From the IMG/VR virus record IMGVR_UViG_3300014291_000001: a stretch of DNA of 39,114 nucleotides; one strand, given 5' to 3'. Below are positions 1-21,813 of the stretch, one piece after another (position 1 is the stretch's first letter; every line of letters begins with the position of its first letter). The notes under the pieces were generated by a model. That model was not told the origin of the DNA. It did not search any database and worked only from the letters and a program-made list of their open reading frames with translations. A program made the position numbers and the translations under genes. This stretch comes from a virus.

Positions 1-77
1 CCCGCAACAAGCCATGAAGACTTTGAGCCAACAAGCAACCCAAATGGCCGCTAAGCCAAAGGTTCAATGGCAAGACT
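1..77. repeat. Terminal direct repeat, left copy; identical to 39038..39114 (circular-contig overlap)
   Basis: cccgcaacaagccatgaag...ggttcaatggcaagact occurs at both window ends, 77/77 nt by eye. The reading frame of the tape-measure gene is continuous across the junction. Confidence 0.95.
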
Positions 78-3000: not shown

Positions 3001-4099
3001 CATGATGGCGGGTTCAGCAGCGACCATGTTTGGTGCTCAACTCATGACTGCTCAGACTGGTTTCAGCATGGTTTCCATGATGGCTACCATGGTATCTAGT
3101 CAGCTTGCTATGCTTGCTAGCTCAGCTCAAATGGCAGGGGCAGGGCTTGCAATGGTAAGTGCTCAAGTCATGATGCTTGCTAGTGTATTTGCTACAGTCG
3201 GAGCGGCAGCAATGACATTGCAAGCTACAATGATGTCGCTTGGTATGGCAGTTAGCGCAGGCATGATGTCAGCGGTTCAAGCGGTAACGTCTGGAGCCAT
3301 GCAAATGACGGCAGCTCTACGTTCTAGTGGCATGCAAATGGTTGCTAGCACGCAAGCCTTCATGAATCAGATTGTCGCAGCAGTTCGTAATGGCATGAAT
3401 CAAGTGGTTGCGGCTATTCGTGCCGGTGGTGCTCAAATGGTATCAGCTATGCAAGCAAGCGGTCAGCAGTTAGTCGCAGTTACGCAAGCAGCGGTTAACC
3501 AAGCAGCAGCCGCAGCAAGAGCCGGTTATGGGGCCTTCTTCTCAGCCGGTGCTTACATGGGGCAAGGTCTTGCCGCTGGTCTTAACTCAGCTCTTGGAGC
3601 AGTTACAGCAGCAGCAAACGCCCTAGTAGCACAAGCGGAACGAGCTGCACAAGCTAAAGCCAAAATCCATTCACCTTCTCACTTATTCCGTGACCAAGTT
3701 GGTTGGTATATCGGTCTTGGTATCGCTCGAGGGATTGATGAATCGGCACCAGAGGTTGCAAATAGCCTTGACTACATCCGTGATCAAGTCAACGGGTTCA
3801 ATGTTCGAGCTAATGCGATGCTCACTGGTGCCACTTCAAACATGGCTAGTCAGCTTAAAATGGAAGTGCTCAGAGATAAAACCCCAGACGCTACAATTTC
3901 AGCACGTCAAGAAGCCTACGCTGCACATTCAGCAGGGTTGCTTGGTGATGTGATTGACGCATTGGGAGACCTCAAAGAACAAATGGCACAAGGTCAAAAT
4001 ATGGTGCTTGACACTGGTGCTCTTGTAGGTGGTACGGTCAACAACTTCAACAGTGCTATCGACACAATCAAAACATTGAAAGGACGACACAGATTATGA
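1..4099 (+). CDS. Tail tape measure protein, main part (5' end lies at 38592..39037 because of circular permutation)
   Basis: Largest ORF in the window, sitting between the tail chaperones and Dit. Low-complexity A/G/S/I/V helical repeats and a C-terminal ...AKIHSPSHLFRDQVGWYIGLGIARGI motif typical of siphovirus TMPs. Frame matches the ATG at 38592 when the 77-nt overlap is collapsed. Confidence 0.9.
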   Translation, partial: PQQAMKTLSQQATQMAAKPKVQWQDFKLMLEQTPAGIAAIAKEMGMSTAEMVQAVQDGKIKTEDFFDAIAKAGTNDTFSKMATEFKTVDQAIDGMKESLANKLMPQFEKLNQIGIKAVVGLTNALEGIDINGIADKIGSGLQSLWKGFANTGALKNLGATFTYISSSIQQLFSKIDGSKLMQGIGSVFGDIANGISQALNVATTSVRSFITSFADTGAFQSFKAAVQDTWNALKTIGSSLGEVLGSSQMQSIISGIASGIGTLVNWISQGISAISKFISSLPKGVLNGVTSGILAMVAGFMTAKAGISAVSAALRGLDFIKSLNPFKKFGADAAAGTAEAANSARRSKSTITQLFSGISNVIKSSGNAIKGILTAIFKGIAETYKGFGQGMKYVLQGLKGLNPATLLSFGAAVAVSAIGIGAGIALIVASFSLLASHASGVSQIIGSIGSAFGTVVESIGKAAGTIVEAFGTAFATVVKAVGEAAPGLAKLSPLVEAIGTALGNAAPAITAFGNAWTSILGTLPAIIDAFSGLATALGSAISAVATAITPIVQIIGNTITAVAQIIANAIVAIAPVIANCIVQVAQVIGQFGPQIAMVLQVIVQAIQATAPVIMTLIQGIVTVVQTLAPVISQVISAIVTVVQTLAPIISQIISVIVTAITQIVPIITAIGGVISAAFSGIASVVSAAGMAIATAAMGIGTAISTALSGVASIISATGSAIGAALQGIASVVQSVGTSISTAAQGIGNGIKSAFEGISSVITSAGSAISSVLNSLANVFNSIGTAAQKAGTGFNQLANGVVKITNTNLADMAASLAAVAKGVGSIGDNSAGLATAGTGMKNLGDGMSKVSSSASSAVSGLTSFSSTITSIQSSFTNLQSLLTTAGTAFSTFSSQASQSLAGLTAIVAPITAFRTQIMTLAPALMQAATGLTQFSTVSMSLTASMTSISSSMTMMATSSTMLGTSLTLVGTQFTMIGTSLMMLNSQFMMFASSLMQMTSQLMMAGSAATMFGAQLMTAQTGFSMVSMMATMVSSQLAMLASSAQMAGAGLAMVSAQVMMLASVFATVGAAAMTLQATMMSLGMAVSAGMMSAVQAVTSGAMQMTAALRSSGMQMVASTQAFMNQIVAAVRNGMNQVVAAIRAGGAQMVSAMQASGQQLVAVTQAAVNQAAAAARAGYGAFFSAGAYMGQGLAAGLNSALGAVTAAANALVAQAERAAQAKAKIHSPSHLFRDQVGWYIGLGIARGIDESAPEVANSLDYIRDQVNGFNVRANAMLTGATSNMASQLKMEVLRDKTPDATISARQEAYAAHSAGLLGDVIDALGDLKEQMAQGQNMVLDTGALVGGTVNNFNSAIDTIKTLKGRHRL

Positions 4100-4824
4100 T
4101 TACTAAAATTAAAGAATATATCACGTTCGGCGATTTTGATAGTCGAAAGTCTGGATGGTACCTTCAAAAACGTGAAGCACCCACGCCAGACGAGAAAGAG
4201 ATTGTTGAGTCTATCCCTTTTATGCAGGGTGTTCTCGACTTCTCTAGTGTCTTGGGTGAGCGTGTCTTTGAGTCTAGAGAAATAACGTATGAGTTTAAAT
4301 TGCCTTTTACGGAATACGAAGACCGTAAAACCGCAGAGCGTATGATTAAGTCTCAAATGGTTACTAAAACGGAGCGAAAGCTATTTGATACGCATGACCG
4401 CAGATATTACTGGATGGGTAAAATCAAGCACATCAAAGTGGCAGACGACCCCATCAGAAAGAACCTGGTTGCTACAATCACATTCAAGTGCTATCCGTTC
4501 GCTTTCCATGAGAACGAATATTTTGACGATGTCTGGGATACATTTGATTTTGAAAGTGATGATTCAACATGGACTAAATGGCAACTTGGGTATACGAAAT
4601 CAGAAAGGACAATCTACTTTGTCAATTCTGGTGATACATCTATCAGTCCAGTAATTTATTGTGATGAGGACATCACGCTTACCGATTCAGAGGGTGTGAT
4701 TTACAACTTGAAACGAGGAGAAAACAGGGAGTTTGCATTGACACTTTATCAAGGGATTAACTACTTTAAGGCTAAAGGCAATGGCACGATTGCCATGCAC
4801 TTTAATAACGAGGTGATGGCATGA
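4096..4824 (+). CDS. Distal tail protein (Dit-like, siphovirus tail family)
   Basis: 242 aa. Its ATG overlaps the TMP stop (ATGA). Position immediately after the TMP and size fit Dit. Confidence 0.7.
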   Translation: MITKIKEYITFGDFDSRKSGWYLQKREAPTPDEKEIVESIPFMQGVLDFSSVLGERVFESREITYEFKLPFTEYEDRKTAERMIKSQMVTKTERKLFDTHDRRYYWMGKIKHIKVADDPIRKNLVATITFKCYPFAFHENEYFDDVWDTFDFESDDSTWTKWQLGYTKSERTIYFVNSGDTSISPVIYCDEDITLTDSEGVIYNLKRGENREFALTLYQGINYFKAKGNGTIAMHFNNEVMA

Positions 4825-6683
4825 GTGCAAGCGGTAAAATCGAAGTATTTAACATTAGTCACACAGGCTACGCTGTCAAGGTTTCAAACCTCAGTAACGA
4901 CACTGGTATCAAAGGGGTGTTGTTTCCAACGTGGAGCAGGAAAACGAACTACTCACCTAGCGCCGGTAAGGAGATAGATCAAGACGATATTATCTGGTAT
5001 GACGGCGTAGAATGGGGCGGTAATTGGTACTGTACGGTTAACATTTCAGACCACAACAATGAGCATGGGGAGTTTCTAACGCATGTCTATGTGTATGACA
5101 ATAACGGGCAACTTGTCGGTGTTGGTGGTGAAAAAATCGTCGTTCCAGAACCGCCAGAAACCACTAAACAAAAGGGCGGTTATGCAGTTTACTGGTGGAG
5201 TGATTTCAATGCTAGACGCTGGGATAAGCTCAATCGTACTAATGCGGCACGAAAGACTATCCATGACCCATACAGCCCAAGAGGTGGTACGGTTATCGCT
5301 GGTGAAATCAACCAAGCTCTAAACACCATTCATGAATTTTCGTTTGCAATTCCTTTCACTCACCCTCTTTACAACAAGATGGTGCCGTTTAAATCAATCG
5401 TCGAAGTAGTTAACCTCTACGATGGCAAGATTGAATTTGTGGGCAGGGTGTTGACATCGACGAATGAAATGGCAACGAACGGATTTGCTCAGAAAGTGAC
5501 CTGCGAGGACTTCCTTTCATTCCTTCATGATTCTGCTCAATGGTTCCAGAAATTACCGAATCAAGGAGCGGCACCTTACTTGACTGAAATTCTAAGGGTT
5601 GCTAACGGAGAGGTCGAGGACTACAAACGCATTAATCTTGGCACTTGCACGGTTAACAGTAGGACCGATAAGCCTTGGCGTTATCTTGGATATGAGAGCA
5701 CTTGGGACTGTGTTCGAGAGCGTATCGTTAACAATATCGGTGGTTATTTGACCATCTACGAGCGAAACACTCGTTTATATGTGGACTGGACCGCCCAGAT
5801 TGGAGAAACCAAGAAATCACCGCTTCAAATCGGTAAGAATATTAAATCAGCAAGCCGAGAGCTTGATTTTGACGGTCTAGCTACTCAAATTATGCCGATT
5901 GGTGCTGATATCCAGAAGGAACATCCAGACGAGGACCAGAGCCCTGATGTGACCAGAGAACAGTTGACCATTTGGCACGTTAACAATAACAGTGCGTTTT
6001 TGGAAGACAAAGAGCTGATAAAAGAGTTTGGTATTATCCGTAAGGCTGTAATCTGGACTGAAATCGACAACCCTAGCGTTTTGCTTGCCCGTGGTAAGCA
6101 GTACTTACGTAACCAAAAAATCGCACTCGCGAAGTGGACAATCTCAGCGGTAGAGCGTTATCTGATTGATAGCCGTTACGATAAATTTGAAATTGGGAAC
6201 AAGCACCCGATTATCAACGCCCCTCTATCTGGGATTGAAACTTTGCAAATCTTGGAAAAGAAAATTGATATCCTAAACCCACAGAGTGTTGATTTGACTA
6301 TCGGCTCACAATCTCAGTCACTTTCAGCCTATCAGCTACAGTTACAAGAGGCTGAAAACTCTATCGAACGCTTGAAACAGAACACTTCTACAGCGAACAA
6401 AGAGAAGCGTTTGAGGGCTCTTAAAGACCAACTCGCAGCACTCAAGAATAAACCTAGCTCAGCACCTACAGCCCCAACCGCACCAACACCGCCTGGTCCA
6501 AACGCATCAGCGGACGAGATTGCCGCTTATGATAAGCAATACGCTGATTATCTGGCAGCTAAGGCTAATTATGATAACCAGTTAGCATCGTACAACATGG
6601 ACGAGCAGGAGCGTGCTAGAACAATCAAGGATGTAGAAGCTGAAATCGCTAGACTTCAAAAAGAATTAAATGGAGGTAATTAA
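4821..6683 (+). CDS. Tail-associated lysin / baseplate hub (prophage tail endopeptidase family) with N-terminal GBS Bsp-like repeat domain
   Basis: 620 aa, ATGA overlap with Dit. The N-terminal ~110 aa fit the Bsp-like repeat pattern (FPTWS...QDDIIWYDG...VNISDHNNEHGEFLTHVYVYDNNGQLVGVGG). The central part is Tal-like. The C-terminus is Pro-rich followed by a coiled coil. Confidence 0.75.
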   Translation: MSASGKIEVFNISHTGYAVKVSNLSNDTGIKGVLFPTWSRKTNYSPSAGKEIDQDDIIWYDGVEWGGNWYCTVNISDHNNEHGEFLTHVYVYDNNGQLVGVGGEKIVVPEPPETTKQKGGYAVYWWSDFNARRWDKLNRTNAARKTIHDPYSPRGGTVIAGEINQALNTIHEFSFAIPFTHPLYNKMVPFKSIVEVVNLYDGKIEFVGRVLTSTNEMATNGFAQKVTCEDFLSFLHDSAQWFQKLPNQGAAPYLTEILRVANGEVEDYKRINLGTCTVNSRTDKPWRYLGYESTWDCVRERIVNNIGGYLTIYERNTRLYVDWTAQIGETKKSPLQIGKNIKSASRELDFDGLATQIMPIGADIQKEHPDEDQSPDVTREQLTIWHVNNNSAFLEDKELIKEFGIIRKAVIWTEIDNPSVLLARGKQYLRNQKIALAKWTISAVERYLIDSRYDKFEIGNKHPIINAPLSGIETLQILEKKIDILNPQSVDLTIGSQSQSLSAYQLQLQEAENSIERLKQNTSTANKEKRLRALKDQLAALKNKPSSAPTAPTAPTPPGPNASADEIAAYDKQYADYLAAKANYDNQLASYNMDEQERARTIKDVEAEIARLQKELNGGN

Positions 6684-6685
6684 AC

Positions 6686-9181
6686 ATGCCACAAACTGAA
6701 GCAGAGGGACGTTTGAACCTCTACGATGATGTCACGCCTTTGGAAAAAACTAAAAACATTAACGTTTTGACAAAGGGCATCCGCAAGAAAACAAGAGGGG
6801 CGGATGTTCGAGAAGCTATTGCCACGGCCATCGAGGTGACCTACGCTGACGGAGCTACTAACGGGAACGCCAACATGGAAGTCATCAAAGCCCGGGGACT
6901 AGCCAGCAACCTTGATGATCGTCTCAGCACTATCGAGAACACGCTAAACGGGAAGGCAAGCGCTGACTTCGTTGAAAAAAAATTCAATAAAATTGAATCC
7001 AACGCTCCTAAGGCTGTTCTCAGCTCACTATCTGAAATCAGTAGCACTTACCCAAACGGTGCCAACGGTATCGTGGTAGCGAAAGACACGGGGAAATGGT
7101 ACTACTACGACGAGGGGGCTCGTTCTTGGAAAGAAGGGGGCGTTTACCAGTCTAGGGGCCTTGGTGGTAATGAAGTTACCGCTGATAATATCGACTTTGC
7201 CCAAGGCATCAAGCAAATGCTTACTGACCGCATTACCGGTACATTCTGGGTTGAAAATGGCGGTAAGATTATCAACGACACAAACAACACATGGTCTCGC
7301 TATTTGCCTATCACTATGTATAAGGGTAAAACCTATTACATCGTGGGTGCTCGTGGCGTGCTATCTTACGTTACATCGGTTGACGGTAGTCGAATTATTA
7401 AGAAATTGGCTGATAGCGATGTACTAACTACCACAGAATACACACCCACAGAGGACTCACTGCTCTATATTTCAACTCGAAACGATGATACTAAACCTAA
7501 AGTGTTTAATGCATCGGTATCTCAACTAGCAGCAACTAACGTTGATATGAACAATTTGCCAGACGGGTATGTTTCGCTTAAAATCCCTAAATTGGAAGTG
7601 GATGTTAAAGCTACTGATTTGTCTTTCGTGACACAAATCAAGCAACTTATCGATGAGAACACTCTTATTCGTGGGAAATACTATAATGGTAACGCTAAAT
7701 CGACAGGGGACGAGCCAACATGGGCTGTTTACCCACCAATTTATCTCGAAAAGGGCAAAAAGTACGGTTTGAAGGGTGTTCGTGGTGTGTTCACATTCTA
7801 CTTCAGTCTGGATAATCGAAAATTGAAGCAATTCTCAAGCGGTGACAATGTTGTCGATGCCGACTACACACCAGACGAAACGGGTTATTTATTAATTACA
7901 AGGCGGCTTGCCGATAACCCTTGTAAACTGATTCAAGGCGGTCTTGCTGGAGCTGCGAAACTTCCAAACCTTAATTATGGAGCGAGCGCCCTTGAAAGTA
8001 ACACGCCGATAGCGTTCCCGAAAATCAAAAACGAGTACACTATAAAGAAAGCGGGCGGAGATTTCAGCACACTAACCGAAGCCATTAAGGCAGTCGGTGC
8101 CGGTAACGCCGACGACCCTGTAACGCTCTATATTCATTCGGGAGAATATGACATCTTGCAAGAACTTGGTGGAGATGCGTTCCTTCGAAGTGTAGAAAGC
8201 AACGGAAGCGAGCGCCAAGGTATCGAAGTGCCTGACTACGTTAATATTATCGGAGTCGGTGATGTTCGCCTTAAAATGGAAATTCCAGACAATAAGACCA
8301 CTTGGGCAACTTCAAGCCGTACAAGCGTTTTAAACGTTTGGCGTCATAATACAATCAAGAATATCAAAATCACTGTCCGCAATACCCGCTACGCAGTCCA
8401 TGATGAGACTAACAACCAGTACAGTAACAATGATATGAAGTACATTGATTGTTACTTTGAGCATCAAGGAAACAAAAACGGTGTTTGGAGCTCAACGCAA
8501 GCATACGCAGCGGGTATGGGTTCTGGTGGTAACTATCTGTTTGATAACTGCACATTCAAATCTAATACGTTGCCATTTTCAATGCACGACAACTTCAATG
8601 TCGAAGCCAATCGTGTCAAGATTACTAAATGTACCTTTATTACTGGTGCTGGGGAAGATTCAATCCGTTTTGGGTCTTACGGTACGGGGGCTAAGAAATC
8701 AATTGTCACCATTGAAAACTGTAATATCGATAAAGCTGTTAAGTCATTTGAAGAGCAAGGGAACTCGCACCACGGCAACCACTTCTCAATTTCTGGTGGT
8801 GGCAACACTGTAGTGCCTTATGTGACTGTAAACAGTGCAGGGCGTAAAGAACGTATTGAATTTGCTGATGAAGTTAGAACACTTGGGAATTCAAGTAGTA
8901 CAAAAATCACAGTCGGAACACCCGTTAAACTGGTCGGTACTTCTGTCCAGCCTCTAGGAGCTGATGAACCGTGGTTATTCTACGGTGTAGCACTTGACGA
9001 TATCGAGCAATGGCAACGAGGAATCATTAAGTACGCTGGATACATTGCAAAAGAAGACACTGGCATCGGTTCACTGTCGACGGGTCAACGCATTGGCTTG
9101 GTTAGTGGTCGTTTAGCAGCGGTGGATTCTAACGACTTCATCGCTTATGCCACTGACGGCAATAATATTCTTTTGAAATAA
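6686..9181 (+). CDS. Receptor-binding / tail fibre protein with tandem duplicated ~105-aa modules and a C-terminal beta-helix (pectin-lyase-fold-like) domain
   Basis: 831 aa following Tal. N-terminal fibre motif EVIKARG...LDDRL. Internal duplication at about 7187-7507 and 7610-7930. GGDFSTLTEAIKAVGAGNADDPVTLYIHSGEYDI resembles the start of pectinesterase or pectate-lyase-type beta-helices. Confidence 0.65.
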   Translation: MPQTEAEGRLNLYDDVTPLEKTKNINVLTKGIRKKTRGADVREAIATAIEVTYADGATNGNANMEVIKARGLASNLDDRLSTIENTLNGKASADFVEKKFNKIESNAPKAVLSSLSEISSTYPNGANGIVVAKDTGKWYYYDEGARSWKEGGVYQSRGLGGNEVTADNIDFAQGIKQMLTDRITGTFWVENGGKIINDTNNTWSRYLPITMYKGKTYYIVGARGVLSYVTSVDGSRIIKKLADSDVLTTTEYTPTEDSLLYISTRNDDTKPKVFNASVSQLAATNVDMNNLPDGYVSLKIPKLEVDVKATDLSFVTQIKQLIDENTLIRGKYYNGNAKSTGDEPTWAVYPPIYLEKGKKYGLKGVRGVFTFYFSLDNRKLKQFSSGDNVVDADYTPDETGYLLITRRLADNPCKLIQGGLAGAAKLPNLNYGASALESNTPIAFPKIKNEYTIKKAGGDFSTLTEAIKAVGAGNADDPVTLYIHSGEYDILQELGGDAFLRSVESNGSERQGIEVPDYVNIIGVGDVRLKMEIPDNKTTWATSSRTSVLNVWRHNTIKNIKITVRNTRYAVHDETNNQYSNNDMKYIDCYFEHQGNKNGVWSSTQAYAAGMGSGGNYLFDNCTFKSNTLPFSMHDNFNVEANRVKITKCTFITGAGEDSIRFGSYGTGAKKSIVTIENCNIDKAVKSFEEQGNSHHGNHFSISGGGNTVVPYVTVNSAGRKERIEFADEVRTLGNSSSTKITVGTPVKLVGTSVQPLGADEPWLFYGVALDDIEQWQRGIIKYAGYIAKEDTGIGSLSTGQRIGLVSGRLAAVDSNDFIAYATDGNNILLK

Positions 9182-10985: not shown

Positions 10986-11831
10986 ATGAGTGTTCAACAA
11001 TCACTAATTAACTGGTTCGTTAGCCATCGAGGACTATTGACTTATTCAATGCTCGGTAGCCGTAATGGTACAGACGGGACGGCTGACTGTTCTGGTTCGG
11101 TATCGCAAGCCTTAAAAGAAGCTGGTATCGGTATTCAAGGGCTACCATCAACCGTAACTCTTGGCCAGCAACTATCAAACAACGGTTTTTATCGTGTTTG
11201 TCGTAACGAATCATGGGACGCATTGCCAGGCGACATCGTTTTGATGTCGTGGGGTGCTGATATGGCTAGTTCTGGTGGAGCTGGTGGGCACGTCGGTGTC
11301 ATGCTCGATGATACATATTTCATCAGTTGTGATTTCTCAACTCAAGGAGCAGCAGGACAAGCTATCAACACTTATCCTTGGAATGACTACTACGGATGGA
11401 ATCAGCCGGCTTATATCGAGGTTTGGCGATACGCTGACACTGCACCACAGACTAACAACCAAGCTAACACAGCAGTAGTGCCGCAAGAAAAAGCATACTA
11501 TGAAGCCAATGAGGTCAAATATGTTAACGGTATTTGGCAAATTAAATGCGACTATTTAGCACCCGTTGGTTTCGACTGGACTGAGAACGGTATTCCCGTT
11601 TCAATGGTTAACTGGGTAGATGCTGACGGCAATGACTTGCCAGACGGTGCTGATCAAGACTTCAAAGCAGGCATGTTCTTTAGTTTTGCCGGTGATGAAT
11701 CTAACATCACTGACATGCAAGATGGCGGCTACTACGGCGGTTATTATTATCGACATTTCGAGTTTGGCCAATTTGGTACGGTTTGGCTCTCATGCTGGGA
11801 TAAGGACGACCTTGTCAACTACTACGAATAA
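10986..11831 (+). CDS. Endolysin (N-terminal Cys-peptidase/amidase-type catalytic domain, C-terminal SH3b-like wall-binding domain)
   Basis: 281 aa. LTYSMLGSRNGTDGTADCSGSVSQALKEAGI...GGHVGVML fits the phage peptidoglycan hydrolase pattern of streptococcal phage lysins. The aromatic/Gly-rich C-terminal domain (GIWQIKCDY...GGYYGGYYYRHFEFGQFGTVW) looks like an SH3_5-type domain. Confidence 0.8.
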   Translation: MSVQQSLINWFVSHRGLLTYSMLGSRNGTDGTADCSGSVSQALKEAGIGIQGLPSTVTLGQQLSNNGFYRVCRNESWDALPGDIVLMSWGADMASSGGAGGHVGVMLDDTYFISCDFSTQGAAGQAINTYPWNDYYGWNQPAYIEVWRYADTAPQTNNQANTAVVPQEKAYYEANEVKYVNGIWQIKCDYLAPVGFDWTENGIPVSMVNWVDADGNDLPDGADQDFKAGMFFSFAGDESNITDMQDGGYYGGYYYRHFEFGQFGTVWLSCWDKDDLVNYYE

Positions 11832-12576: not shown

Positions 12577-12849
12577 ATGACCACTTACAAAGAATACAAA
12601 CAAGGATTGAAAGAACAACGTGAGAGAGTACAAGCTATTCGCAACGAAGTTTTCTCAGACAAAGTGGAAAAACTAGAAACAGACCTCGTAAGAATTGCGA
12701 ACGGAGATGTTTATAAAATCATTCCACGATTTGGGACTAAATACGAAGATAGCCGAATCATCAAATTAGACCCAGAAGATGTGGAATATCACATCGAAGA
12801 AGCTCGCAAAGTTAGAGAACTTGCGAAAATTATGGCAAGCAAGGATTAA
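12577..12849 (+). CDS. Moron ORF2, hypothetical 90 aa
   Basis: SD AAAGGAGA 7 nt before the ATG at 12577; the track ORF start at 12550 has no SD. Charged helical protein with no recognised family. Confidence 0.6.
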   Translation: MTTYKEYKQGLKEQRERVQAIRNEVFSDKVEKLETDLVRIANGDVYKIIPRFGTKYEDSRIIKLDPEDVEYHIEEARKVRELAKIMASKD

Positions 12850-12865
12850 AAAGAGGAACAAAGAC

Positions 12866-13417
12866 ATGATTATTAACAACGACGTTAAAGAGTTGATTTT
12901 GGAATACGTAAACCGCTATTTTAAATTTGAAAATGACTTCTACCGTCTTCCTAATATCAAATTTACTGATGCTAATTGGCAGAGATTTAAGCAGGGCGAA
13001 ACCTCTATCGAGAAAATGGGGGCGGCACGAGTTAACGCCATGCTTGACTGCCTGTTTGATGGTTTTGAGCTCGCTATGATTGGCAAGGCTCAAAACGATT
13101 ACTACTTGGACAATTCGCTGAAAATGAACATGCCGTTTCACACCTACTATGACCAGTTTAAGAAGCAGCAGCTTCTAAAATGGATTGAGAATAGTCGTGA
13201 AGACATCATCGGAGGTGCTGGAAGAATGTACACAGCGAGCGGGAATTGGATTTCTAGCGCTTATTTAGAAATTGCATTAGAATCTAGTTCCATCAGTGGC
13301 GGTGGCTATATGCTTCAAATGCGGTTTAAAGACTATTCACGAAGCCAAGAACCGATACCAGCAGGCCGCCAAAATCGACTTGAATGGATTGAAAAAAACT
13401 TGGAGAATATCCGATAA
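12866..13417 (+). CDS. Moron ORF3, 183 aa; possible AcrIIA6-like anti-CRISPR (recollection only, unverified)
   Basis: SD AAGAGGAA 7 nt before the ATG at 12866. The N-terminal helical region has an HTH-like stretch (ANWQRFKQGETSIEKMGAARVNAMLDCLF). The size and the position downstream of the lysin match what I recall for AcrIIA6 of S. thermophilus phages. Confidence 0.5.
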   Translation: MIINNDVKELILEYVNRYFKFENDFYRLPNIKFTDANWQRFKQGETSIEKMGAARVNAMLDCLFDGFELAMIGKAQNDYYLDNSLKMNMPFHTYYDQFKKQQLLKWIENSREDIIGGAGRMYTASGNWISSAYLEIALESSSISGGGYMLQMRFKDYSRSQEPIPAGRQNRLEWIEKNLENIR

Positions 13418-15212: not shown

Positions 15213-15812
15213 TTATTTAACCTTAACTTCCATTGATCCGTTAAGCTTTTGGCTAGCTAGTGCATTGCCATCATCAGTCTTAATATGAAACATTGGATAA
15301 CGCTCATAGTTGACATTGTTGATTGCAGCCCAGACGTTGAAGGCTTCATGCTCTTTGGCAAGCATACCGTCAGCAAAATTCTGCAAGTCAGCTTTGCTAT
15401 ATGTTTTATACTCGTTAGGAACCGTCATATATAAAATAGTGCTGCGATTGTAAAAACTATATGTACTAATATCCAGACCTTTATCGGTCAAATCTTGCTT
15501 GAAGTAGTCGATAAAGCTACCCATTTGACCCTCGGTAATGTCTTTTAGCTTATCTTCCGAGCTTGGTTCTGAGCTTGATTCTTTTGAGGACTGTTCCTCG
15601 CTCTTTGAACTTGACGTTTTGGCACTGCTAGATGGTTTACTAGCTTTAGGTTTTGCTTTTGAAGAAGTGGAGGTCTGGACTGTCTTAACTGGTTCTGTCT
15701 TCGTTTTCGGTGCGATACCAGTAATTTCAAAGACTTTCCCAAGAACAGCTAAACAAACAAGCACAATCGCCCATTTTTGCCAGCGTTTCAAATTCTTCCA
15801 TTTACTCAACAT
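15213..15812 (-). CDS. Membrane-anchored extracellular protein in the lysogeny operon (superinfection-exclusion candidate)
   Basis: 199 aa with SD AAGGAG. N-terminal anchor KWAIVLVCLAVLG, then a Ser/Lys-rich linker and a globular C-terminal domain. It occupies the slot between int and the repressor where Sie/Ltp-type genes sit. Confidence 0.5.
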   Translation of the reverse strand: MLSKWKNLKRWQKWAIVLVCLAVLGKVFEITGIAPKTKTEPVKTVQTSTSSKAKPKASKPSSSAKTSSSKSEEQSSKESSSEPSSEDKLKDITEGQMGSFIDYFKQDLTDKGLDISTYSFYNRSTILYMTVPNEYKTYSKADLQNFADGMLAKEHEAFNVWAAINNVNYERYPMFHIKTDDGNALASQKLNGSMEVKVK

Positions 15813-16183
15813 TTTTCAATCTCCTTTAGTTTTAGATACTCATTTTTTACAAAAGTCTCATCGCAAATTGTGGTGAGATTATATTTTTCCATAAAGTGTA
15901 AGTAATTAAAATCGTCTAGATTTTCATTTTTCAGCAATTCATGGATCATACTCCTATTTGCTTGAACCTCAAACTTTTCTCGCATTCGTTCATAGTCTTT
16001 AGAGTTGTGCTCTAGGTGGCCTAACTCATGAAAAATGACCTTTAAACGTATTTCTGGGGCTAAATCCTTATTGATATAAACCACCCTGTTTATATGGTCA
16101 ATAAAGCCGTTTCTGGGCCACTGGCTAGAATCAAACTCACAGATAGAGACATTGAACCGCTCAAGCAATTCACTTTCAGTCAT
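15806..16183 (-). CDS. ImmA/IrrE-family zinc metallopeptidase
   Basis: 125 aa with an HEXXH motif (IFHELGHLEH), immediately downstream of the XRE repressor. Confidence 0.85.
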   Translation of the reverse strand: MTESELLERFNVSICEFDSSQWPRNGFIDHINRVVYINKDLAPEIRLKVIFHELGHLEHNSKDYERMREKFEVQANRSMIHELLKNENLDDFNYLHFMEKYNLTTICDETFVKNEYLKLKEIEKC

Positions 16184-16189
16184 AGCACC

Positions 16190-16555
16190 TCACTTCTCTT
16201 TGCTACTCATATAGCCGGCAATTATGCCACGAATTGCCCGCTTGTCTTCCTCTGTAAGAGGTTTACCGTCGAACATCATTGCATTATCGATGATGTTATC
16301 AATGTCGTGGGCGTTGGGTTGTTGTTTCTCGGTTGTTTCTGGACCATCTCCAAAAAGAATGTAATCCGTAGAAGTCCCCAAGGCTTGAGCCAATTTTACA
16401 ATCTTTGTCCCTGTCGGAATACTAGCACCGCTTTCCCACTTTGAAATAGTTGAGTCAGACTTATACCCTAGCATTTTCGCTAATTCAAGCTGACTAATGC
16501 CCTTGCTAGCTCTCAAACTTTCAATTCTACTTCCTCTTTGCTTATTCAAATCCAT
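16190..16555 (-). CDS. cI-like repressor (XRE-family HTH)
   Basis: 121 aa. RIESLRASKGISQLELAKMLGYKSDSTISKWESG is an HTH_3 pattern. Transcribed divergently from cro. Confidence 0.85.
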   Translation of the reverse strand: MDLNKQRGSRIESLRASKGISQLELAKMLGYKSDSTISKWESGASIPTGTKIVKLAQALGTSTDYILFGDGPETTEKQQPNAHDIDNIIDNAMMFDGKPLTEEDKRAIRGIIAGYMSSKEK

Positions 16556-16987: not shown

Positions 16988-17740
16988 ATGAACGAATTGA
17001 TTAACGTATCATTAAACGAAAATCATGAGCCTGTTGTTTCTGGCAGACAGTTACATAAAGCTCTAGGCGTTAAAACAGCTTATAAAGATTGGTTCCCACG
17101 TATGACCGAATATGGTTTTACAGAGGGTGAAGATTTCAACCCGCTCAAAATTGAGCAGGTTCGACAAGAGGGAACAAGAAAGGTCAAGAGACAAATTGAA
17201 GACCACGTCTTAAAGCTAGACATGGCGAAAGAAATCGCAATGATTCAGCGAACAGACAAAGGCAAGGAAGTCCGAACCTACTTCATCCAAGTAGAAAAGG
17301 ACTTCAATAGTCCAGAGAAAATCATGGCAAGAGCATTGCTCATGGCTGATAAGAAAATCAAGCTCTTGGAAAACGAAAACGAAAACCTCTTGATCGAGTT
17401 GGAAGAAGCGACTAAAAACGCTGATTACCTAGATTTGATTTTACAAACCAAGGACGGCTTGACAATCACCCAAATCGCTCAAGATTATGGAATGTCAGCT
17501 CGCAAAATGAACCAACTCTTGAAGCGAGAGCGAATCCAACGCACTGTCAATGGTCAGTGGGTACTATATGCTAAATACCTTGCTAAAGGCTACGCAACAA
17601 GCCGAACATTTGATTATGTTGGTAAAGACGGCAAACCCCACAGCAACATGACAACAGTCTGGACGCAGCTTGGAAGACGTTTCCTATACGAGCGTTTAAA
17701 AGCTATCGACATCTTGCCAATCATCGAACAAGATGGTTGA
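16988..17740 (+). CDS. ant: Antirepressor (ORF6N/Bro-N-type N-terminal domain, KilAC/ANT C-terminal domain)
   Basis: 250 aa. PVVSGRQLHKALGVKTAYKDWFPRMTEYGFTEGEDF in the N-terminal domain and LTITQIAQDYGMSARKMNQLLKRERIQ...YAKYLAKGYA in the C-terminal domain. Confidence 0.8.
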   Translation: MNELINVSLNENHEPVVSGRQLHKALGVKTAYKDWFPRMTEYGFTEGEDFNPLKIEQVRQEGTRKVKRQIEDHVLKLDMAKEIAMIQRTDKGKEVRTYFIQVEKDFNSPEKIMARALLMADKKIKLLENENENLLIELEEATKNADYLDLILQTKDGLTITQIAQDYGMSARKMNQLLKRERIQRTVNGQWVLYAKYLAKGYATSRTFDYVGKDGKPHSNMTTVWTQLGRRFLYERLKAIDILPIIEQDG

Positions 17741-17748
17741 GGATGTCA

Positions 17749-17889
17749 CCTTGGCGGCACTAGTGAGCTAGCGGGGCATATCTGTTGAAAACGTAAGCAA
17801 TACCATTAGCGTGAGACGATTTGATTTATAAGAACTCCTAAAAATAAATATAATCGAAAGTCCTCGCTAGTTCTCCAGTGTCGCCAAGG
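17749..17889. repeat. 141-bp element with 28-bp imperfect terminal inverted repeats (long hairpin)
   Basis: CCTTGGCGGCACTAGTGAGCTAGCGGGG (17749-17776) pairs with CCTCGCTAGTTCTCCAGTGTCGCCAAGG (17862-17889); 2 mismatches plus G.U pairs. The 85-nt AT-rich interior holds TAGCGT at 17807-17812 near the apex. Confidence 0.7.
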
Positions 17890-17893
17890 CATC

Positions 17894-17924
17894 AAAAAAG
17901 GCTGACCCCTGCCAGAGTCAGACC
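17894..17924 (-). terminator. - strand rho-independent terminator candidate with no - strand gene upstream
   Basis: On the - strand: GGTCTGAC-loop-GTCAGCC followed by TTTTTT. Confidence 0.45.
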
Positions 17925-17955: not shown

Positions 17956-18096
17956 ATGAAACGAAAAAAATGGGAACCAACCATAATTAACATTATGGCA
18001 GACGGTTCCAGAGTTGATGACCTAACTAAGTACACGATACCGGCAGGACATAGCTACTACGATATCGTGGCAAGCATATACATGAAGGGAGCGTAA
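17956..18096 (+). CDS. Small hypothetical ORF (46 aa), below the track cutoff
   Basis: ATG at 17956, TAA at 18094. MKRKKWEPTIINIMADGSRVDDLTKYTIPAGHSYYDIVASIYMKGA. Only a weak SD (AAAGAG). Confidence 0.35.
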   Translation: MKRKKWEPTIINIMADGSRVDDLTKYTIPAGHSYYDIVASIYMKGA

Positions 18097-18143: not shown

Positions 18144-18485
18144 ATGAATAACAGATTTCTCCAAGATACTAGCTTGAGCTTGCAAGCAAAAGGGCTACTT
18201 GCTGAAATCTTATCAAATAAGAGTGACTGGCGGATATATCTGACGGAGCTTGAAAAACGTTCGACTAACGGAGCGAGCTCACACCGAGCAGCGTTCAGTG
18301 AGTTAAAACACAAGAAGTATGCAGCACTTTTTAGAAAAAGCAAAGGCTACAAAAAAGGTTTCGAAATCTTTATCTGTGTGTCAGACATACCAATGACAGA
18401 CGAGTTTATAGCCTACCTTGATAAAAAGTTATCCACAGAGTTATCCACAGGCAACACTGAAAATTCACAAGTCGAAAATTCATAA
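18144..18485 (+). CDS. Rep/replisome-organizer-like winged-HTH protein (short, 113 aa)
   Basis: FLQDTSLSLQAKGLLAEILSNKSDWRIYLTELEKRS resembles the N-terminal HTH of plasmid/phage replication initiators. Its 3' end contains the DnaA boxes and the first iterons. Confidence 0.55.
   Translation: MNNRFLQDTSLSLQAKGLLAEILSNKSDWRIYLTELEKRSTNGASSHRAAFSELKHKKYAALFRKSKGYKKGFEIFICVSDIPMTDEFIAYLDKKLSTELSTGNTENSQVENS
18429..18449 (+). promoter_or_regulatory. Two tandem perfect DnaA boxes
   Basis: TTATCCACA at 18429-18437 and 18441-18449, the exact 9-mer consensus. Confidence 0.6.
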
Positions 18486-18562
18486 CATGATAATTCACGT
18501 TGTGATAATTCATATTATGAAAATTCATAACATGATAATTCACGTCGTGATAATTCATCCTA
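18458..18562. repeat. Origin iterons: seven 15-bp phased direct repeats
   Basis: (T/C)GA(A/T)AATTCA cores start at 18458, 18473, 18488, 18503, 18518, 18533 and 18548. 18473-18517 and 18518-18562 form a 45-bp higher-order repeat. Confidence 0.85.
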
Positions 18563-18578
18563 TCAATTTTCGCACACT

Positions 18579-18618
18579 AACAAGTACTAATATATAACAA
18601 GTACTAATATATAACAAT
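18579..18618. repeat. AT-rich 17-bp tandem repeat (candidate DNA-unwinding element)
   Basis: AACAAGTACTAATATAT appears twice plus a partial third copy, flanked by CGCACACTAAC direct repeats at 18571 and 18628. Confidence 0.7.
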
Positions 18619-19002: not shown

Positions 19003-19103
19003 CATCAATCTTTCAACGTGCAGCCACGGCCTCATCGTGGAGTGTAACTTATACCCATAATTCCCCAAAATTATACTAAATTACTTTTTCCTAATATTCC
19101 CAT

Positions 19104-19132
19104 TTTACAGTCTAATAAAACATTGAAATATT
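19104..19132 (+). promoter_or_regulatory. Candidate promoter for the adhesin gene
   Basis: TTTACA (19104-19109), 17-nt spacer, AATATT (19127-19132). The leader contains the hairpin GCATGGG..CCCATGC (19174-19193). Confidence 0.3.
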
Positions 19133-19221
19133 CTGCGGTGGGGCTATGGGTGCACGTTGAGAGCACTAAAAAAGCATGGGTTAGGGCCCATGCAAGAAAA
19201 TTATACCAAGGAGATTATATC

Positions 19222-21159
19222 ATGAAATCTTTTAACACTCAAACAATCACTAAACCTAGCTACGTTAAATCAAAAGCCTTCGGGCTTTGCGGCACGCTCG
19301 CCATTGCTACAGCTCTATTGATTGGAGCTGGGGTAGTATCAGCCGATGAAGTGACTGAAACAGCAGTAGATACACAACCAGCGGTGTCTAATGTCTACAC
19401 CGCTGACAATGCTGGGAATGTTACAGTAACACCAAGTGAAACAGTGGCACCAGTGGAAACACCAGCGGTTGCTACCGAATCAGCACCAGTGGCAGAACCT
19501 ACACCGGTTACAGAAACACCAGTAGCGCAACCAGTGGCAGAAACTACAGCGCCAGTCGAAGCGCAACCTACTACATTCGTTAAAGAGGGTGACACTATCC
19601 AAGTATCTAACCCTAATGTTGAGGTTGACCAGTCTCAAGGAACTGGTAAATACCAAGGCTTCACAGTGGAATACAAGGATGTAAAATTCCCTGACGATAT
19701 GGCTATCAATGAAGGGGATAAGGTTAAGTTCACTTTACCTGAAGAAGTGAAATTTCAAACTAACTTTGACTTTGATGTTTACAATCCTGACAAGCAAGTT
19801 GTTGGTAAAGCTACTACAGACACAGCAAGCAATACTGTGACTACTGTATTTAACAACTACTTTGCATCTCATCCGCTTAACAAGCAAATGAGTCTTAAAA
19901 TGGACGCTACTTGGACAGACAAGGTCGAAAGTGGCAAGCCAGTCACAGTAAACTTCAATGGGACAGTGATCACCGTCAACATCGGCAAAGAACAAGAAAT
20001 TGGTAAAGATGAATTACTTTCTAAATGGGGTAGTCAAGACGAGAATGACCCAACTGTTATCAACTGGACTATCCGTGTTAACTACGCAAGACGTGTGTTG
20101 AATTATGTGACATTGATTGACACAATGAGTGACAATCAAACCCTTGTGGATAACTTCTTTGAAGTTAAGAACATTGAGAGCGTGAATCCATGGATTGATA
20201 AAGGTTCAGCAATGGATTTAGTTAAGTCAATCAGCAAATCTGAGCATGGCTTTGAAATCAAAATGGACCGACTTGACCATATGATTTACTTGAACTATAA
20301 AACCAAACTGACAAATGCAGTTAAGGATAGCGTTAATCCAACCAATAAGGTTGAGTTAAAAGCTGAGTCAGATGGTGCTGTTTCATACAGTTATGTTCAA
20401 CTCGTCGGTGGCCGTGGCGATGCATCAGGCGAAAACAAACCAGAACCAACGTTTGAAATTCCTCGTGAAGCTCCAAAAGTTGACATCCCGGAATTTGAGG
20501 GTGGCATCCCCGGAATCCCTGAAGTCCGTGAATTGCCGGAATATAACGAACCTATCGGTACAGTACCGAATGAAGCTCCGAAATACGAAAAACCTGAGTT
20601 TCAAGGTGGTATTCCTGGTATTCCAGAGGTACGAGAATTGCCAGAATACACTGAACCAATTGGAACAGTGCCAAATGATGCGCCAATTCTTGAAAAACCT
20701 TCTATCGATCTAAAAGATATCCCAATGATGCCACCAGCTCCAGTCGTAGAAATTCCAGAATGGAATGGCGGAACTACTCCATTCGATGCACCTAGCATTG
20801 ATAAGCCAGAATGGTCTGGAGGTGTCGTACCATTTGATGCACCAGTTTTGGACTTGCCAGAATTGGAAATTCCAGTAGAGCCAGAAAAACCAACACCAGA
20901 AAAACCTAGCACGCCAGAAAAAGCCCCTAAAACGAGCGTAGAGCGTCCTAATAACAAAGTGGCACAATCTACCACAGTATCTTATAAGCTCGATTCTGAG
21001 CCAAAAGAGGTGGCAAATACGCCCGTTTACGGTGGGACTCTTCCAAATACTGGTGAAAAAGAAGGCATCATGTCAACTCTTGGTCTAGTAGTAATCGCAG
21101 CAGGCATCACAACTTTGGGATTGAGCTTCAAGAAGTACAACGAAGGTGAGGAAGAATAA
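19222..21159 (+). CDS. LPXTG cell-wall-anchored surface adhesin (MSCRAMM/Cna-like A domain plus Pro-rich repeats)
   Basis: SD AAGGAG, ATG at 19222. Signal peptide MKSFNTQTITKPSYVKSKAFGLCGTLAIATALLIGAGVVSADE, a P/T/A/E-rich spacer and a Cna/Sdr-like domain (GDKVKFTLPEEV...TVTTVFNNYF...WTIRVNY). Two 35-aa repeats and two 17-aa repeats follow. LPNTG at 21040-21054, then a hydrophobic segment and a KK tail. Confidence 0.9.
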   Translation: MKSFNTQTITKPSYVKSKAFGLCGTLAIATALLIGAGVVSADEVTETAVDTQPAVSNVYTADNAGNVTVTPSETVAPVETPAVATESAPVAEPTPVTETPVAQPVAETTAPVEAQPTTFVKEGDTIQVSNPNVEVDQSQGTGKYQGFTVEYKDVKFPDDMAINEGDKVKFTLPEEVKFQTNFDFDVYNPDKQVVGKATTDTASNTVTTVFNNYFASHPLNKQMSLKMDATWTDKVESGKPVTVNFNGTVITVNIGKEQEIGKDELLSKWGSQDENDPTVINWTIRVNYARRVLNYVTLIDTMSDNQTLVDNFFEVKNIESVNPWIDKGSAMDLVKSISKSEHGFEIKMDRLDHMIYLNYKTKLTNAVKDSVNPTNKVELKAESDGAVSYSYVQLVGGRGDASGENKPEPTFEIPREAPKVDIPEFEGGIPGIPEVRELPEYNEPIGTVPNEAPKYEKPEFQGGIPGIPEVRELPEYTEPIGTVPNDAPILEKPSIDLKDIPMMPPAPVVEIPEWNGGTTPFDAPSIDKPEWSGGVVPFDAPVLDLPELEIPVEPEKPTPEKPSTPEKAPKTSVERPNNKVAQSTTVSYKLDSEPKEVANTPVYGGTLPNTGEKEGIMSTLGLVVIAAGITTLGLSFKKYNEGEEE

Positions 21160-21161
21160 TC

Positions 21162-21482
21162 ATGAAAGAAAATAACAAACAAGTCGTATTTTATAGCGCT
21201 GAAAAAGATGGGTTCCTTGAAAGTTACAAGGACAAAGGAAGCCTAGTGTTTACAGCAGTGTTTACTGAACGCTTGGAGAAAGCACTATTCTTGCCGCTTG
21301 AACCGTACGAAGAACAAAAAAACGAACTTGATAAGCTTGCCGAAGCGTTTGGCTGCGAAGTGCTTATCGTAGAAGCTGAATATAACGTAACTAAACTTGA
21401 CGGCTCGGACTTTGAACGCACGGAGCGTGAAGAATCCATGAAGGATGGCATTAAAGCACTCCTAGAATTATTGGCGAAGTAA
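21162..21482 (+). CDS. Hypothetical acidic protein, translationally coupled to the adhesin gene
   Basis: 106 aa. ATG lies 2 nt after the adhesin stop; SD GAGGAAGAA. Confidence 0.6.
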   Translation: MKENNKQVVFYSAEKDGFLESYKDKGSLVFTAVFTERLEKALFLPLEPYEEQKNELDKLAEAFGCEVLIVEAEYNVTKLDGSDFERTEREESMKDGIKALLELLAK

Positions 21483-21517
21483 CATAACATGAAGTGGCGG
21501 GAGGGTAGGCATTAAAC

Positions 21518-21700
21518 ATGGAACAAGAAACTTACAACGTCGAAAACCGATGGCGGAACAAGTACATGAATTTAGGTCGAGAGCTGGGCGAGATCATCAA
21601 CAGTCAGCAAGACAGAATCTTGTCATTGTCTCAAGAAAACAACAAGCTCAAACGGGAGCTTTGGTACCTAAAAAAGTCGAAGGGCAAGAAATGGCTCTAA
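21518..21700 (+). CDS. Hypothetical small coiled-coil protein
   Basis: 60 aa, basic C-terminus. An overlapping alternative frame (21550..21747) is less protein-like. Confidence 0.4.
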   Translation: MEQETYNVENRWRNKYMNLGRELGEIINSQQDRILSLSQENNKLKRELWYLKKSKGKKWL

Positions 21701-21813
21701 AATCGCTTGTAACCGTCCTAAATAATCTAGTGGCACAATTACACTAGAGAAACGGTAAAACGGCAAATAACCCCCAAAATTTGAGAATTAGGGGTATATA
21801 AAAAGGATATGAC

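Follow-up and report, generated by a model that had tools for sequence, protein, structure and literature searches.

Genes of the family examined here are already annotated in published phage genomes, as Ssal_phage00024 of YMC-2011, gp23 of SA-TP2, Javan536_0009 and the 'sialidase' genes of Javan534, Javan535 and Javan539. We analyzed a further member, the open reading frame (ORF) at 19222-21159 of IMG/VR virus record IMGVR_UViG_3300014291_000001. This stretch of 39,114 nucleotides (nt), hereafter the window, is essentially the whole genome of a temperate siphophage from the Streptococcus salivarius group; in the databases, prophages of S. salivarius and phages of S. thermophilus come closest to it. 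The ORF encodes a predicted sortase substrate of the MSCRAMM type (microbial surface components recognizing adhesive matrix molecules), here called the adhesin, and is preceded by a structured RNA element, here called the leader. The window adhesin resembled the YMC-2011, SA-TP2 and Javan proteins over its full length and in its slot and leader, and differed from them in its A-domain allele and in the downstream module, which in the window encodes ERF, DUF1351 and SSB. We consider it probable (about 0.7) that the adhesin gene is co-transcribed with the early genes inside one operon driven by the promoter pR, with the structured leader upstream. In the literature searched, we found no functional study of this family.

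The proteins closest in fold are Cna, ACE, Cnm and RspB, which use the collagen hug, and SdrG, ClfA, SdrC/D/E and Bbp, which use dock, lock and latch. All share a tandem pair of Ig-like domains, a signal peptide and an LPXTG motif with the window adhesin. In contrast to them, the window adhesin, which is 12-17% identical to the MSCRAMM structures, has a SIALI-17 stalk and no B or SD repeats, and is phage-borne in an early operon.

Phage genes for other surface proteins have been described. SasX, an LPXTG surface protein encoded by a phiSPbeta-like prophage of Staphylococcus aureus ST239, reportedly alters adherence or colonisation. SasX and the window adhesin are both prophage-encoded sortase substrates but are unrelated in sequence and fold, and the sasX gene is accessory cargo outside the replication operon, whereas the window adhesin gene lies within the early operon. 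Llp of phage T5, a receptor-blocking lipoprotein expressed early in the lytic cycle, is said to bring about lytic conversion. With regard to the leader, early mRNAs of T7 and of Bacillus subtilis phage SP82 contain intercistronic RNase III sites, and 5' stem-loops serve as mRNA stabilisers in Firmicutes. The T7 and SP82 sites resemble the leader elements in being repeated long imperfect hairpins between the cistrons of early polycistronic mRNAs. The leader elements differ from them in having no sequence relationship and in possessing a 60-110-nt loop followed by a conserved A-run and hairpin.

PblA, PblB and the lysin of S. mitis phage SM1 mediate adhesion of the bacterium that hosts the phage; they are released on lysis and re-bind the cell surface (PMC2920869). 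SM1 and the window phage are both oral-streptococcal temperate phages, but the SM1 proteins are late virion or lysis proteins without a signal peptide and LPXTG, unlike the window adhesin. Ltp of S. thermophilus phage TP-J34 is a superinfection-exclusion lipoprotein of the lysogeny module (PMC3952083). Ltp and Llp are surface-anchored phage proteins like the window adhesin, but they are small lipoproteins known to block a receptor or injection and share no sequence or domain similarity with it.

The adhesin and its relatives

An earlier reading of this DNA made from its letters alone (the sequence-only reading) had proposed a Sec-exported, LPXTG-anchored, MSCRAMM-like protein. All coordinates in that reading agreed with the sequence, and the signal peptide, judged by inspection, the LPNTG motif and the Pfam and Foldseek matches support such a protein (Table 1). 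In the signal peptide region, again by inspection, MKSFNTQTITKPSYVKSK leads into a hydrophobic core and then VSA/DE. The Cna/Sdr-like A domain described in that reading was matched by the Pfam hidden Markov model (HMM) Collagen_bind. The Pro-rich region with PE(F/W)xGG cores, in which a 105-nt unit occurs twice (20466-20675) and is followed by 51-nt units, matched NCBIfam SIALI-17 in five stretches (E 1.2e-20). These repeats had been likened to fibronectin-binding repeats; there was no Pfam Fn_bind match at E <= 0.01, and we rejected the likeness in favour of SIALI-17.

An AlphaFold2 model of amino acids (aa) 120-420 was all-beta and comprised two domains. When this model was compared with known structures using Foldseek, nearly all of the top 50 matches were two-domain MSCRAMM A regions (E 1e-12 to 5e-10, probability 1.0), with approximately 300 columns aligned; the matches included SdrC/D/E, Cna, Bbp, ClfA, RspB, Cnm, ACE and SdrG. 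Sequence and profile searches of the PDB with the adhesin gave no match, such that the fold search alone succeeded, and the PHROGs database contained no family for it. The segment TVTTVFNNYF (aa 206-215) resembles the TYTFTDYVD motif by eye.

Three points speak against the assignment. The Gram_pos_anchor HMM scored 16.3 bits, and its cut-off is 20 bits. An acidic tail extends past the KK, which is atypical of sorting signals. Further, confidence in the structural model was moderate (mean predicted local distance difference test, pLDDT, 72.8) and TM-scores were approximately 0.37. As for the tail, its codons, GGTGAGGAAGAA (window 21135-21161), are the ribosome-binding site of the next gene, which encodes 106 aa; the site itself, GGTGAGGAAG at 21144-21153, is encoded by the C-terminal EGEEE codons of the adhesin. 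A distant homologue without this overlap has a canonical LPKTG...KKK tail.

Given general knowledge of the Sec pathway, sortase A and MSCRAMMs, the signal peptide would export the adhesin, host sortase A would cleave LPNTG between T and G and attach the protein to peptidoglycan, the SIALI-17 Pro-rich region would cross the wall, and the two N-terminal Ig-like domains would be exposed for ligand binding. Wall anchoring and ligand binding are thus predicted from knowledge of the family.

Full-length homologues of the same architecture and in the same slot (55-65% identity) were found in SA-TP2, YMC-2011, Javan536 and Javan534/535/539, and each precedes a different replication/recombination module. 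A metagenome protein search was saturated with matches, many of them on contigs of 38-40 kb. When 127 copies of the leader were sampled, a homologue directly followed 106 of them; 77 of these homologues were complete with LPxTG, and most of the others ended at a contig edge. GTDB representative genomes contained 20 homologous loci, in S. salivarius, S. gingivalis, S. parasanguinis and other Streptococcus species. Same-strand phage early genes flanked 17 of these loci, and three were located on short or poorly matching contigs. In the GTDB and phage loci, the gene was located after the leader, between genes for an SNF2-type helicase and RepA, after those for SSB and a replication initiator, or after a primase gene. 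In phages of S. mitis and S. parasanguinis it lies within or just before the replication genes, and in the Javan311 type 15 and 19 nt separate it from the helicase genes on either side. The S. thermophilus (dairy) phages that share the leader do not possess the gene. The sequence-only reading had named, as a finding that would speak against it, universal carriage of the gene by homologous phages as part of a conserved non-adhesin module. Carriage was indeed largely universal, but the module was not a non-adhesin one.

Among 73 distinct full-length homologues, the ratio of non-synonymous to synonymous substitution rates (dN/dS) was 0.1-0.25 in every region; the adhesin gene is therefore under purifying selection. 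At least six types of A domain were distinguished at 80% identity. In one allele (locus L052 and two similar loci), an Adhesin_P1_N plus GbpC head, as in antigen I/II, replaces the Cna-like domains, with the signal peptide, the SIALI-17 stalk and the LPXTG anchor unchanged. To judge from these domain matches, the adhesive head was swapped on a fixed scaffold for a second classical head of oral-streptococcal adhesins. The presence of two classical classes of adhesin head on one scaffold is the best argument for a genuine adhesion function.

The human mouth and gut are colonised early by S. salivarius, a pioneer species. Because most sampled temperate phages of this species possess the adhesin gene, phages may be a major mobile source of its adhesins, and head swapping would add diversity to the repertoire that they supply.

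The NCBI family name is 'SIALI-17 repeat-containing surface protein'. The homologues of Javan534, Javan535 (locus L004, 4702-6423) and Javan539 are labelled 'sialidase', and metagenomic homologues are labelled 'putative outer membrane protein'. Both labels appear to be misannotations of SIALI-17 surface proteins, and the SIALI-17 repeats probably explain the former. A complete homologue was also found in MW057932.1, 'Campylobacter phage CJLB-5' (locus L205, 3414-4844), which was obtained from poultry faeces and assigned to Campylobacter jejuni. It has a signal peptide, a Cna-like A domain, SIALI-17 repeats and LPKTG, and is located directly upstream of a gene for a DNA replication protein. As the homologue is a sortase substrate, the host given in the record is probably incorrect. 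The two labels and this doubtful host are matters for database correction.

The leader and a second element of the same architecture

The leader comprises a long-range helix, an A-run, a GC-rich hairpin and a Shine-Dalgarno sequence with its spacer (Table 1). The sequence-only reading had noted the hairpin and a 10-bp inverted repeat, TCAACGTGCA/TGCACGTTGA (19013-19022 / 19151-19160). This repeat is the core of a 28-nt inverted repeat (19010-19037/19136-19163), one of two long intergenic ones in the 13-kb early region. In the window phage, the helix extends to approximately 34 bp (19010-19045 with 19128-19165). The loop inside it is AT-rich and variable, approximately 95 nt long in the window phage, and contains the promoter match proposed in that reading. 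The minimum free energy of the leader was -67.1 kcal/mol (z = -6.2 relative to shuffled sequences), and this value, together with the covarying helix and hairpin, upheld the claim that the leader is structured.

Covariation was analyzed using RNAalifold and pair counting in an alignment of 69 leader sequences with pairwise identities below 87%. Canonical pairs occupied 98.4% of the cells, compared with at most 42% in slid controls, and none of 500 shuffles reached the observed values. We identified compensatory changes at 13 pairs, 11 in the long helix and two in the hairpin. The 10-bp repeat switched as a block from CGU/ACG to UCC/GGA. The signal was specific to the plus strand, on which 12.7% of the pairs were G.U: canonical pairing fell to 86.6% when the minus strand was read, and a covariance model scored 210.6 bits on the plus strand versus 23.4 on the minus strand. 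A point against this result is that the search pattern of the first leader sample held portions of the 3' arm and A-run constant. Resampling anchored on the 5' side partly corrected for this and yielded 115 genuine copies; four of these have variant 3' arms and stay paired through A-U, G.U and G-C steps.

The hairpin stem occurs as GCATGGG, GCACGGG and GCACAGG. Read on the minus strand, the A6 run and hairpin become a hairpin followed by T6, as in an intrinsic terminator. In three loci (L013, L028 and L155), the hairpin loop is inverted, GCATGGG-CCCTAA-CCCATGC versus GCATGGG-TTAGGG-CCCATGC, suggesting that the segment enclosed by the arms was flipped and that the stem alone is important.

The segment 19005-19205 is conserved in phages that do not possess the adhesin gene, for example SVep1, in which it precedes the gene for a 191-aa beta-solenoid protein, and S. 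thermophilus phage CHPC640, in which it precedes that for a 71-aa protein. Five metagenomic phages also possess the leader in front of another gene (see below). An adhesin-specific leader, as suggested by the sequence-only reading, and an adhesin-specific riboregulator were therefore rejected. Further, a conserved mini-ORF in the 3' arm (ATG GGT GCN NNT TGA) was dropped because copies of the S. thermophilus type have CTG. Searches of Rfam gave no match in the window at gathering thresholds, and a permissive run returned only sub-threshold unrelated families, mostly miRNA models of long hairpins. The leader was unannotated in all 11 GenBank phages that contain it, and the covariance model detected none in the phage loci of S. 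mitis or S. parasanguinis. The comparative evidence identifies the leader as a conserved phage RNA structure of the plus strand, without an Rfam match and not specific to the adhesin.

Weak matches of the covariance model upstream led to a second element, between the antirepressor gene and the ORF that starts at 17956. It consists of a helix (17749-17776 with 17862-17889), an A-run (17896-17901) and a GC hairpin (17902-17921), followed by a Shine-Dalgarno sequence, the spacer ATTGTACC and ATG. The inverted repeat of this element is 28 nt long with an 85-nt loop (minimum free energy -67.2 kcal/mol, z = -4.4). BLAST matched the element in 35 of the collected loci. Pairing of its 24-bp helix reached 97.7%; five of the pairs were compensatory and three G.U pairs were near-invariant. 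Thus, the early operon contains two predicted intercistronic elements of one architecture. They are a candidate new RNA family and may provide a handle on the organisation of early expression in Aliceevansviridae-like phages, including the S. thermophilus dairy phages.

The adhesin gene in the early operon

The sequence-only reading had regarded the gene as a cassette bounded by a direct repeat and placed it in the early region. The latter holds: the iteron block lies upstream and the ERF/DUF1351/SSB module downstream. We compared the window with relatives that do not possess the adhesin gene, as that reading had suggested, and this comparison defined the boundaries. The leader of five metagenomic phages stands immediately before the 106-aa gene, with the junction ...AAGGAGAATATATC-ATGAAACAAACAGAAAAACAAGTCG...; in the window, the identical Shine-Dalgarno sequence and spacer precede the ATG of the adhesin gene, and ...AATAATC-ATGAAAGAAAATAACAAACAAGTCG begins the 106-aa gene. 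The unit of presence or absence is therefore 19222-21161, start codon to start codon, with the microhomology ATCATGAAA at both ends of the indel. Because the same block precedes the 106-aa gene in adhesin-free relatives, the block of Shine-Dalgarno sequence, spacer and ATG is assigned to the leader and serves whichever gene follows.

Within the 3.3 kb that contains the direct repeat, 19 other direct-repeat families, of 13-24 nt, were of comparable quality, and the repeat finder that scanned this stretch did not report it. We rejected it as an insertion scar, given its chance-level quality and the location of the true indel ends at the ATG codons 19222 and 21162.

The 106-aa gene, the ATG of which starts 2 nt past the adhesin stop codon, had been taken for a translationally coupled member of the cassette. 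When we searched for it using tblastn, 74 records of streptococcal phages contained it (hosts: pneumococcal, pyogenes, agalactiae, suis and others); nearly all of these phages are adhesin-free, and the 106-aa gene follows only approximately half of the adhesin genes. It is therefore neither a cassette member nor an accessory or chaperone of the adhesin, and these records assign it to the phage backbone. The 60-aa gene recurs behind the adhesin gene or the 106-aa gene in many loci.

The gene had also been credited with its own promoter, TTTACA-17-AATATT at 19104-19132 (TG at 19124-19125). This match scored 9/12, a level at which the region contained 22 matches compared with 15.2 +/- 4.1 in shuffles, i.e. 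the level of chance. Under the same criteria a loop promoter was present in nine of 109 distinct leader variants, and no conserved promoter was found in the loops of these 109. No plus-strand terminator was found between 16400 and 29000, including the position after the adhesin gene. The GC content of the gene was 37-47%, the same as that of its flanks and the rest of the phage. Presence/absence polymorphism exists, as the five leader copies directly before the 106-aa gene indicate, yet the gene follows 106 of the 127 sampled leader copies. Thus, the cassette reading was wrong in its details: the own promoter, the adhesin-specific leader, the coupled partner, the scar and the fibronectin-like repeats. 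The comparison identifies the adhesin gene not as an autonomous cassette but as one cargo gene whose insertion spans exactly from start codon to start codon.

In locus L024, the ORF behind the leader encodes 49 aa: its first eight codons are those of the 106-aa gene (MKQTEKQV), and the remainder resembles the signal peptide of the adhesin, as if recombination or a deletion had left a remnant at the slot.

These findings suggest the following arrangement. One long rightward operon from pR (16662), without an internal terminator, would include the adhesin gene. Because such an operon lacks an internal terminator, the adhesin is most likely made with the early and replication genes after infection or induction, and the constant position in the early operon argues that its expression tracks early transcription. 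In a lysogen, the adhesin would be made only through leakage of the operon or if the weak loop promoter were active. The leader supplies the Shine-Dalgarno sequence and initiation context. The leader and the second element would punctuate the polycistronic early mRNA as sites of processing by RNase III and/or RNase Y and of 5' stabilisation: the helix may be an RNase III site, the A-run before a stem-loop may be an RNase Y site, and the hairpin would then act as a 5' stabiliser. The double-stranded RNA is of a size suited to RNase III (approximately 20 bp or more, imperfect), with 22 conserved pairs in the leader (approximately 34 here) and 24 in the second element.

Other observations count against this arrangement. 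The processing role of the leader is purely a proposal from analogy. The hairpin and A-run fit a minus-strand terminator equally well. The leader loop in this phage holds the -35/TG/-10 match, and expression in the lysogen may occur. Further, YMC-2011 is reportedly maintained as an episome; genes of the replication region might then be transcribed in lysogeny.

The last two points bear on the alternative that the gene is a classical moron of lysogenic conversion, in which a repressed prophage would express the adhesin from the loop promoter and confer new adherence or biofilm behaviour, as SasX does. We consider this unlikely, although several findings would suit it: the promoter match with its TG, adhesin heads of the Cna-like and GbpC/antigen I/II types that fit a host niche, the presence of the gene in phages of mucosal streptococci and its absence from the leader-sharing dairy phages, and purifying selection. 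The rarity and chance-level quality of the promoter argue against it, and a transcript from the loop would miss the conserved 5' arm of the helix. The adhesin gene is not followed by a terminator, its GC content is not atypical, and in the Javan311 type it is wedged between two helicase genes. Further, the usual moron slot, between lysin and integrase, is occupied in the window by other genes, one of them AcrIIA6-like. The placement of the gene inside the early operon, seen in several phage lineages, speaks against an autonomous moron of the classical kind.

With respect to the leader, we tentatively considered a minus-strand antisense RNA of approximately 40 nt, a reading we regard as doubtful. 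It would start from an extended -10 over the start codon (19222-19214, TGATATAAT) and end at the hairpin plus T6 (19193-19168). Such an RNA might lower translation of the gene immediately downstream or act through transcriptional interference, and its site, with regulatory genes on one side and replication genes on the other, recalls lambda OOP. A TGnTATAAT-like motif on the minus strand was present in 105 of 109 leaders compared with one of 65 other ORF starts in the window, the minus-strand terminator match lies approximately 15-30 nt downstream of the -10, and the same layout recurs at the second element (17956-17948, TGGTACAAT; 17921-17896). In four hairpins of the S. thermophilus type, C.A on the plus strand corresponds to U.G on the minus, and inversion of the loop is tolerated. 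However, the ATTATAYC spacer may be kept purely for translation initiation, the apparent invariance of the A-run is biased, since the first search pattern included it, and the long helix is clearly a plus-strand feature.

A further alternative is lytic conversion, in which the adhesin would be made early in infection or induction and serve the phage itself, by receptor masking or exclusion of superinfecting phage, by preventing progeny from adhering to debris, or by gluing infected cells to neighbouring hosts or surfaces. The constant position in the early/replication operon of at least four phage lineages, the near-universal presence after the leader, the occurrence in phage contexts only, in the loci sampled, and the lack of an autonomous promoter or terminator fit this idea, for which T5 Llp is a precedent. 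On the other hand, two ligand classes of host- or biofilm-adhesin heads are hard to fit to the masking of a single receptor, related phages manage without the gene, and the protein has no sequence similarity to known superinfection-exclusion (Sie) proteins and no PHROG match. We regard a benefit of this kind as quite improbable.

That the leader acts as DNA, as a replication origin or a recombination hotspot marking a module boundary, is very improbable: its AT-rich core with GC-rich inverted-repeat flanks adjoins replication genes and mosaic junctions lie immediately after it, but its G.U pairs, 12.7% of the total, are confined to the plus strand, the iterons at 18427-18617, behind a replisome-organiser fragment, make a better origin candidate, and an initiator-matched origin was rejected because the element stands in front of at least four unrelated replication modules.

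Co-transcription from pR remains the reading that we prefer. What the present analysis adds to the published annotations is the near-universal early-operon position, head swapping and two covarying RNA elements without an Rfam match. The placement also raises the question of whether the stickiness of the cell is altered when the phage awakens rather than during its dormancy. A more speculative extension, to which we give little weight at present, is that oral-streptococcal phages possess an adhesin family that is phage-only in the sampled loci, has swappable heads and is displayed at phage activation instead of in quiet lysogeny, and that a new class of structured RNA, with at least two copies per genome, sets the relative expression of the early gene blocks, possibly with tiny antisense RNAs. 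If true, this would be a 'lytic conversion' that alters how infected or induced cells stick to hosts, neighbours or phage.

Genomic context

Table 1. Features of the window around the adhesin gene and in the rest of the phage genome (aa, amino acids of the encoded protein)
Feature	Position	Strand	Remarks
Tape-measure and tail genes	14-9181
Endolysin gene	10986-11831
ORF in classical moron slot (lysin-integrase interval)	12779-13417		phrog_4964
Large serine integrase/recombinase gene, 480 aa	13633-15075	minus
Metalloprotease and CI-like repressor genes	15806-16555	minus
pR	16662	rightward	perfect TTGACA-17-TATAAT promoter
Antirepressor gene	16988-17740		followed by small ORFs, then the adhesin locus
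Second intercistronic element	17749-17921	+	same architecture as the leader; between antirepressor gene and ORF 17956
113-aa ORF and repeat stretch	18144-18617
Origin-like iteron block	18427-18617		follows replisome-organiser gene fragment
Small ORF, 47 aa	18736-18879	+	phrog_1022
Small ORF, 39 aa	18883-19002	+	tandem paralogue of the 47-aa ORF
Leader: long-range helix, conserved 22-bp core	19013-19038 with 19135-19160	+	covariation
Direct repeat of the sequence-only reading, copy 1	19057-19072		inside leader loop, CCCCAAAA motif; not an indel boundary
Leader: A6 run	19168-19173	+
Leader: GC-rich 7-8-bp hairpin GCATGGG/CCCATGC	19174-19193	+	15 nt upstream of Shine-Dalgarno sequence
Leader: Shine-Dalgarno AGGAG (19209-19213), spacer ATTATATC, ATG	19209-19224	+
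Adhesin gene, 645 aa	ATG 19222 to TAA 21157-21159	+	ORF and motifs read from sequence
Signal peptide, aa 1-41	19222-19344		MKSF...AGVVSA/DE, judged by inspection
Thr/Pro/Ala/Val-rich spacer, aa 45-120
Big_8 domain, aa 153-234	19678-19923		Pfam, E 2.5e-11
Collagen_bind domain, aa 264-376	20011-20349		Pfam, E 4.9e-13
SIALI-17 Pro-rich stalk, aa ~415-550	20464-20871		NCBIfam
LPNTG sorting motif	21040-21054		then 21-aa hydrophobic stretch, tail KKYNEGEEE
106-aa acidic early gene	21162-21482	+	phrog_2486 (no assigned function); pI 4.6
60-aa early gene	21518-21700	+	phrog_2553; backbone, between 106-aa ORF and erf
Direct repeat of the sequence-only reading, copy 2	21767-21781		upstream of erf; chance-level, not an indel boundary
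ERF gene	21814
DUF1351 gene	22513
SSB gene	23493
RusA gene	24005

The ORF in the classical moron slot encodes a protein whose last 72 aa are 92% identical to an SA-TP2 protein annotated as the anti-CRISPR AcrIIA6. The annotated integrases of YMC-2011, SA-TP2 and Javan536, the closest phages that share the early region, are approximately 354-360 aa long and are presumably tyrosine recombinases, as that of SA-TP2 is annotated. Compared with these three phages, the integration module of the window is a predicted exchange.

The similarity of the 113-aa ORF to replisome-organiser/DNA-binding proteins (phrog_1456) was confined to the N-terminal third of the latter. The ORF continues into a stretch of 31% GC that holds a 49-nt palindromic repeat and several tandem-repeat arrays, with units of 12, 15/30 and 17 nt. 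The repeat stretch is plausibly an origin or the remnant of one.

The 47-aa and 39-aa ORFs immediately before the leader belong to the family MKKLFxWxWSKKQQEPEYFFEPVWTP, members of which precede the leader in related phages. In those phages, one ORF of approximately 51 aa is located directly before the leader, where the window has the tandem pair.

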